DNA of 17,041 bases from a virus (lineage: Duplodnaviria > Heunggongvirae > Uroviricota > Caudoviricetes), in the IMG/VR virus record IMGVR_UViG_643348547_000011; one strand, given 5' to 3'. Below are positions 15,673 to 16,012 of this stretch, piece by piece. The position numbers and the translations under genes are program-made. Each line of letters starts with the position of its first letter. The stretch's first letter is position 1. Under the pieces are notes generated by a model. It had not been told where the DNA came from. It worked only from the letters and a program-made list of their open reading frames with translations, and did no database searches.

Positions 15673-15996
15673 TCACACAATAACTCTGAGATCGCAGATT
15701 GTTTTACTTTTACAGCTTCCGTCCCCCCATTGTTGGGCAAATATAGATTGGGCCAGAGCACGAAAGTTAATACCACGTTTGCACAGCTCCTCCAACAGCA
15801 CGACAAGATGCCACATACTGCGCCCCAGTCGGTTCAGTTTACAGACTAGCAGTGCGTCCCCTACCGATAATGTCCTGAGCCGTTTGTTCTGTCCGGGCCT
15901 GCTGCCACGGTTATGCGCTGCAGTGGTAACTCTAAGCACGCAGTTATTCAGTCAGGCGTGGTGCACCGTAACGCTGGTATTGCTGGGTAAGATCAA
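15673..15996 (-). pseudogene. pin: N-terminal (catalytic domain) remnant of a Pin/Gin/Hin-family serine DNA invertase
   Basis: Minus-strand translation ...SRPGQNKRLRTLSVGDALLVCKLNRLGRSMWHLVVLLEELCKRGINFRALAQSI... matches the serine-recombinase core (RPGL...L..GD.LVVWKLDRLGRSM.HL..LV.EL..RGINFRSL.DSI). There is an in-frame TGA near the N-terminus, homology is lost after ~residue 100, and there is no C-terminal HTH. Confidence 0.7.
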
Positions 15997-16012
15997 AAAA
16001 CTTTCAAGCAGC
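15988..16012. other. Degenerate Hin-family crossover-site remnant at the 5' end of the second invertase fragment
   Basis: Minus strand reads GCTGCTTGAAAG-TTTTTTGATCTTACC, which resembles hixL (TTCTTGAAAACCAAGGTTTTTGATAA) with about 5 central bp missing. Weak. Confidence 0.25.

Follow-up and report, generated by a model that had tools for sequence, protein, structure and literature searches.

The interval 15673-16012 of the 17,041-nt stretch of DNA analysed here (the window) very probably corresponds to the known Escherichia coli pseudogene pinH, a non-functional relic, with a second invertase fragment at 3914-4100 (termed the C fragment) having a separate history. Comparison with other genomes established the identity, boundaries and distribution of each fragment, as well as its chimeric nature. 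The two are independent relics and not the two halves of one gene.

The window represents the region of the E. coli chromosome found just downstream of ssrA (99.96-100% identity to CE10 and AR_0013). Specifically, the whole window aligned with the CE10 chromosome at 99.96% identity, beginning 235 bp downstream of ssrA, and a megablast search with 15400-16300 returned E. coli chromosomes at up to 100% identity. On the plus strand of CE10, the order is a type II restriction endonuclease, a cytosine methyltransferase, a GIY-YIG protein and a partial 'helix-turn-helix' pseudogene (the C fragment), then an acyltransferase, tail-fibre assembly and tail-fibre genes, Mu/e14-type baseplate genes and a truncated tape-measure gene, followed by an IS3-family element, a 3'-truncated ypjA, a partial 'recombinase family protein' pseudogene (the fragment at 15673-16012), ypjCB and tRNA-Ile (ileY). 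The features assigned within the window are as follows:

3914-3995, minus strand: 3' end (HTH and stop codon) of the pinE gene of the resident e14-like prophage (98.8% identity to STB20-1 pinE vs. 69.5% to the cassette, computed over 3995-3914)
3996-4020, no strand: crossover interval of homologous recombination (switch of informative sites)
4021-4100, minus strand: decayed, truncated pin gene of the acyltransferase cassette, approximately codons 130/135-150 (97.7% identity to the EC0026B cassette vs. 70.5% to pinE, computed over 4064-4021)
4253-5278, plus strand: acyltransferase, cassette cargo (within a 98.4% match to the EC0026B prophage)
5320-5730, minus strand: tail-fibre assembly gene, cassette cargo (within the same 98.4% match)
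6362-6381, plus strand: pix-like crossover site, CATCTCCCAAACCAAGATTT (search allowing up to 3 mismatches; one match, 0.01 expected by chance)
12556-13865, minus strand: complete IS3-family element of 1310 bp (25-nt terminal inverted repeats, ALIL frameshift pseudoknot, annotation)
15712-15909, minus strand: pinH relic, an internal piece of the catalytic domain of a Pin-family invertase (tblastn, nucleotide identity, Pfam, match to Gin, orthology to K-12)
15896-15996, minus strand: internally deleted IS3H-like remnant (blastn, HTH_21, IS3 transposase model)
16057-16151, minus strand: fossil end of a Fels-2/P2-like prophage (identity to phage att ends, alignment with ssrA)

Homology to an invertase on the minus strand within 15673-16012, as proposed in the preliminary description of this DNA, was readily confirmed. 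Residues 39-94 of intact PinE matched 15909->15742 in a tblastn search (E = 1.6e-18), the Pfam Resolvase profile matched with E = 8e-9, covering only positions 47-102 of its 145, and residues 42-101 of Gin (PDB 3UJ3) matched with E = 1.3e-13. At the DNA level, an ungapped core at 15901->15761 shares 84.4% identity over 141 nt with codons 41-88 of intact pinE. Homology is solid across PinE codons ~39-94 and continues as a frameshifted trace to approximately codon 103 ('PTMGG', cf. PMGR), with the frame being shifted by a 4-nt deletion after 'FRALA'. Relative to pinE, 13 codon changes are nonsynonymous and seven are synonymous, and include W61C, D64N, R71W and R81C. The Arg-to-Trp/Cys changes described earlier are thus real, with the cassette-derived part of the C fragment (4021-4100) also presenting an Arg-to-Trp change. 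The premature stops likewise ascribed to both fragments hold in part, in that this same part of the C fragment contains two Gln-to-stop changes; those at 15673-16012 sit in IS-derived sequence, the pin-homologous part of pinH containing a frameshift but no stop.

The fragment at 15673-16012 had also been thought to keep the N-terminal catalytic domain, yet PinE codons 1-38, including that for the nucleophile serine, found no match anywhere in the window when intact PinE served as tblastn query, residues 39-94 and 138-184 being the only parts of PinE detectable in the whole window. In Pin, Gin, Hin and Cin invertases, the nucleophile corresponds to Ser9/10 within a YxRVST motif. In pinH, the region containing this motif is missing, with the Pfam match beginning at position 47 and the sequence upstream being that of IS3H. 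HTH_7 in the same frame as the catalytic domain is also missing from pinH, HTH_7 being present only in the C fragment, which contains two in-frame stops and lacks a catalytic domain. Moreover, the 5' part of gin, hin and cin houses a Fis-dependent recombinational enhancer. As judged by the extent of homology, the enhancer-bearing 5' ~115 nt is absent for both fragments.

Examination of the 5' third of the interval (15896-15996) revealed this sequence to be derived from an IS and not from an invertase. Positions 15978-15996 match the left end of IS3H, upstream of the transposase gene of that IS, at 19 of 19 nt, and 15896-15990 correspond to an internal piece of orfB ('QRYGAPRLTE*LRA*') that abuts pin codon ~41. 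The orfB piece matches IS3H on the Shigella sonnei plasmid pInv at 78 of 96 nt (81%; blastn E = 1e-21), and IS3H orfB matches to 15896-15990 were found at the DNA level in more than 1000 plasmid records. At the protein level, the HTH_21 domain of IS3-type transposases (E = 2.4e-4) and positions 144-172 of the NCBIfam IS3 transposase model both match this part. The left repeat and the orfB piece overlap at TTACCC, suggesting an internal deletion at microhomology. Of a complete IS3 element, nothing has survived beyond the left repeat and 96 nt of orfB. The complete IS at 12556-13865 was considered as the source of this scrap and rejected, as tblastn with its OrfB gave no significant match and the scrap is IS3H-like. 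As to the degenerate crossover site reported at the 5' end of the fragment, this proved to be the IS terminus; a search for pix allowing up to 3 mismatches detected no site near 16000.

The same composite is found in K-12. Positions 13866-16995 share 93.4% identity with the 3.1 kb ypjA-pinH-ypjB segment of that strain, where pinH (b2648), located between ypjA and ypjB, is annotated as a pseudogene, and both flanking genes and breakpoints are identical in the two loci. Indeed, K-12, two further E. coli strains and Shigella flexneri all show the same IS terminus, IS/pin junction, internal indel and 3' breakpoint as the window, the pinH boundaries being common to five genomes. When the junction-spanning 381 nt served as query, the composite was detected in 3038 of the 5426 complete E. 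coli genomes, once per genome and in most cases with 90-95% identity. A count of 5321 genomes obtained with a 901-nt query was discarded, having been inflated by neighbouring sequence. A scan for the IS/pin junction in one genome per species returned only E. coli and Shigella, together with one contaminated metagenome-assembled genome (MAG); as the junction pattern had to match exactly, diverged copies may exist in other Escherichia species. The MAG contig in question (DEQI01000374.1, 'Planococcaceae bacterium UBA3370', 2799 bp) matches E. coli K-12 at 100% identity over pinH-ypjB-ypjC and almost certainly reflects K-12 contamination in a public MAG. The Shigella flexneri copy of pinH contains a short cluster of differences (alignment columns 355-392) that is partly nearer to intact pin genes than to other pinH copies and may represent a gene-conversion patch from another pin gene. 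A search of the literature for work on pinH itself yielded no paper.

Turning to the C fragment, PinE residues 138-184 matched 4057->3917 (tblastn E = 4e-21), as did Gin residues 138-181 (E = 1.7e-11) and HTH_7 (E = 5.6e-9), in agreement with the C-terminal HTH earlier assigned to this position. The fragment is, moreover, a hybrid of two pin genes. Positions 1-4064 share 98.9% identity with STB20-1, where the restriction-modification and GIY-YIG genes also seen in the window precede an intact pinE of 555 nt, after which come an invertible segment and the same baseplate genes as in the window. The pinE-like part (3914-3995) is continuous with its GIY-YIG, methyltransferase and restriction endonuclease neighbours. 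Informative sites switch cleanly, being cassette-like at and above 4021 and pinE-like at and below 3995, which places the crossover within 3996-4020. The 5' breakpoint of the C fragment is identical in the EC0026B copy, the one copy compared, and the exact hybrid junction was found in only four records. Upstream of ~4105, local alignments detected no pin homology. The AT-rich stretch at 4106-4262 was considered as decayed pin sequence, which would overlap pinH, and was rejected, given that four scoring schemes performed no better on it than on dinucleotide shuffles.

The restriction endonuclease, cytosine methyltransferase and LEM-3-like GIY-YIG genes lie at 1-3853, directly downstream of ssrA. 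As this trio also follows pinE in STB20-1 and in many O157 genomes, it is apparently cargo of the e14-like element. On the other side of the C fragment, 3953-6233 share 98.4% identity with an EC0026B prophage next to the bio operon and ybhC that carries a tail-fibre tip, tfa, an acyltransferase and a pin stump that is already truncated and contains stops. The cassette cargo at 4253-5730 occupies the place of the invertible P segment; in the e14-like remnant of the window, both this segment and the pinE 5' part have given way to the cassette. With 4000-5320 as query and at least 80% coverage, the cassette was detected in 65 genomes, including derivatives of E. coli B/BL21, all of which match across the junction with the pin stump; the EC0026B prophage was the one other cassette context examined. 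Positions 6234-6357 match neither donor genome. The acyltransferase is a single intact ORF of 341 aa in the window and is annotated as two CDSs in CE10 (segment coordinates 5856-6882). The alignment of the window with CE10 is one base longer than the window, and a frameshift difference between these near-identical strains may explain the two CDSs.

These comparisons are best explained by a scheme in which a younger e14-like prophage remnant, nearer to ssrA than is pinH, would once have had its own pinE gene and invertible tail-fibre segment. Homologous recombination would then have swapped in a cassette comprising a tail-fibre tip, tfa, the acyltransferase and an already truncated pin gene, with one crossover falling inside the region encoding the Pin HTH (3996-4020) and the other boundary lying somewhere in 6233-6358, beside the stf crossover site. 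Such a swap would have left the hybrid 3' pin stump seen here.

In STB20-1, the invertible segment is flanked by a pair of inverted 20-nt crossover sites, 1814 nt apart. When the site of this intact relative was used as the pix query (up to 3 mismatches), 6362-6381 was the sole match in the window. Differing from the STB20-1 site at two positions, it lies inside an intact stf ORF of 316 aa, with homology to the e14-like prophage resuming at 6358, four bases before the site. A second, inverted site was found nowhere in the window, nor was there any site near either fragment. In K-12, PinQ inverts the e14 P segment in trans, and the Pin systems of cryptic prophages are active (PMC12529663); it is solely because such systems matter biologically that the orphan site deserves mention. 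It is conceivable, if improbable, that a Pin recombinase from another prophage could act in trans on 6362-6381 and a pix site elsewhere. Were this so, the chromosome could undergo large inversions or deletions, or novel chimeric tail-fibre proteins could arise.

The preliminary description had offered two origins for the fragments, namely as two independent prophage relics or as two halves of one gene separated by rearrangement. As stated there, both are on the minus strand and in N-to-C order. They lie ~11.7 kb apart and do not overlap, an arrangement that, together with their shared Pin/Gin-like character, speaks for one invertase gene having been split when the intervening 11.7 kb were inserted or rearranged. 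The results proposed as evidence against such a split, i.e., different closest homologs or overlap in the protein regions covered, were not obtained. With both fragments Gin/Pin-like and non-overlapping, sequence classification alone cannot separate them, and it is synteny, rather than tests of homology or overlap, that decides in favour of independent relics. The 3' breakpoint of pinH recurs in K-12 and other strains, where CP4-57 comes after ypjA and a tail module is lacking, and the 5' breakpoint of the C fragment is common to the cassette that other strains carry at a different chromosomal location. Nor is divergence similar, as had been suggested as a check: STB20-1 contains, in matching context, an intact pinE gene with which the 3' part of the C fragment shares 98.8% identity, as against 84.4% for pinH. 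The halves do not abut at one codon. Codons 1-38 are missing from the window, such that the N half lacks codon 1, as are ~26-43 codons between the fragments (95-137 by the ends of the high-scoring pairs, 104-129 at best) and not the ~20 previously estimated. Finally, the fragments do not show the co-occurrence expected of one gene, with pinH being found in 3038 genomes vs. 65 for the cassette or four for the exact hybrid, a difference of ~50-fold or more. With separate breakpoint histories, missing codons and differing divergence and frequency, a single split gene is extremely improbable; synteny, breakpoints, divergence and frequencies all agree with two independent relics.

Two further readings concern pinH itself. 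Derivation from a Tn3/gamma-delta-type resolvase rather than from a DNA invertase could be entertained on the grounds that the Pfam Resolvase domain is common to both subfamilies and that gamma-delta and Tn3 resolvases also match the fragment. The match to Gin is, however, far stronger than those to resolvases (1.5e-4 or worse), and nucleotide identities of 84% with pinE and 75-82% with the DNA invertases of phages likewise speak for an invertase, leaving a resolvase origin with virtually no probability. The same holds for the C fragment, which was matched by Gin and not by gamma-delta resolvase, and the best phage matches of each fragment are invertases of E. coli myoviruses (82-84%). It is also very unlikely that pinH was co-opted as a promoter or regulatory region for ypjA or as a small-peptide gene. 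Its retention with fixed boundaries in 3038 of 5426 genomes, its position ~210-450 bp upstream of the ypjA start and the presence in this strain of an open 88-codon ORF across it (15673-15939) could point to such a role. Against this, the segment differs by ~6-7% between the window and K-12, a divergence probably well above that typical of the E. coli core, nonsynonymous changes relative to pinE outnumber synonymous ones and affect catalytic-motif residues, RefSeq annotates pinH as a pseudogene, and it is absent, or undetectable by megablast, in ~44% of genomes. In addition, no Rfam family matched at pinH or at the C fragment. The preferred reading of pinH as a non-functional invertase relic is in line with its coding capacity: lacking the Ser nucleophile, E-helix, HTH and crossover site, it is predicted to be unable to encode a recombinase. 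More generally, judged from their sequences, neither fragment can work as a recombinase, since both lack a continuous reading frame as well as the nucleophile and E-helix regions.

Between pinH and ypjCB, in the window as in K-12, lies the fossil end of another prophage that is not annotated in RefSeq. Positions 16076-16151 are an ogr-side att arm, corresponding to the stretch from ogr to the attachment core in ssrA-integrating phages of the Fels-2/P2 type, and share 87-90% identity with the att ends of Fels-2, RE2010, 500465-1 and Cartapus. Adjacent to this, ~16057-16080 represent a degenerate copy of the 3' end of ssrA that is better preserved in K-12. As blastn of ssrA against the window gave no match and this copy is visible solely in a multiple alignment anchored by the Fels-2 arm, assignment of the core is weaker than that of the arm. 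Given that pinH is nearer to e14-type pin (84%) than to the invertases of P2-like phages (75-79%), it need not stem from a Fels-2/P2-like phage.

K-12 contains a further displaced ssrA end (psaA) at the boundary of CP4-57, on the other side of ypjA. When an element integrates, it restores the gene that it targets, and a displaced piece of that gene stays behind at the opposite end, where it marks the limit of the island (PMC4383910). On this principle, the displaced ssrA fragments lead the region to read as a stack of islands, for which we infer at least three successive integrations. The first layer would be an old Fels-2-like prophage of which the end alone remains, the second would be the element that brought ypjA, pinH and the IS, and the third, ssrA-proximal layer would be represented by CP4-57 in K-12 and, in the window, by the restriction-modification/e14-like remnant. 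Where the young island meets the old ypjA-pinH segment lies the complete element at 12556-13865, which we take to be IS629/IS1203-like and which cuts short both the tape-measure gene and, at its opposite end, ypjA. The triplets bordering this element are not alike (AGC vs. ACC), suggesting an IS-mediated deletion rather than simple insertion, one that would have eliminated the border separating the two younger island layers.

For pinH itself, we infer the following order and mechanism of deletions. An old element integrated at ssrA would have carried a Pin-type serine invertase gene with an IS3H-like IS upstream. One deletion would have joined the left end of the IS to the middle of its own orfB, a second would have joined orfB to pin codon ~41 and a third would have removed all sequence after pin codon ~103, with what remains presumably drifting neutrally.

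As pinH is already annotated, the feature is known and not novel, and no new mechanism is involved. The value of these findings thus lies mainly in annotation hygiene, with pinH being an internal invertase fragment fused to an IS3H scrap and not an N-terminal fragment, and with the 'helix-turn-helix domain-containing protein' pseudogene near the acyltransferase being a hybrid of two pin genes. At the same time, the region offers a textbook example of islands piling up at the tmRNA gene and of tail-fibre/invertase modules being exchanged through recombination at conserved stretches.

Comparison with known systems places each part of the region. The pinH of the window resembles that of K-12 in its orthologous position, composite structure and boundaries, the two differing only by point differences within the relic; at the level of the locus, an IS3-family element cuts ypjA in the window, and the island separating ssrA from ypjA is a different one. 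The IS scrap shares with IS3H the whole 19-nt left terminal repeat and an 81% identical 96-nt stretch of orfB; unlike a complete IS3-type element, it keeps only ~100 nt, with neither right end nor transposase ORF. As in Fels-2/P2-like prophages at ssrA, an ogr-side att arm and a degenerate ssrA core survive in the window, yet no phage genes of that type lie beside the arm. The C fragment occupies the place of e14 pinE, between the GIY-YIG gene and the tail-fibre genes; by contrast with intact Pin systems, the window lacks the invertible P segment and one of the two crossover sites. Both fragments descend from genes of the PinE/Gin/Cin/Hin subfamily and yet differ from these in no longer being genes, the nucleophile and E-helix regions having been lost and stops and frameshifts having accumulated.
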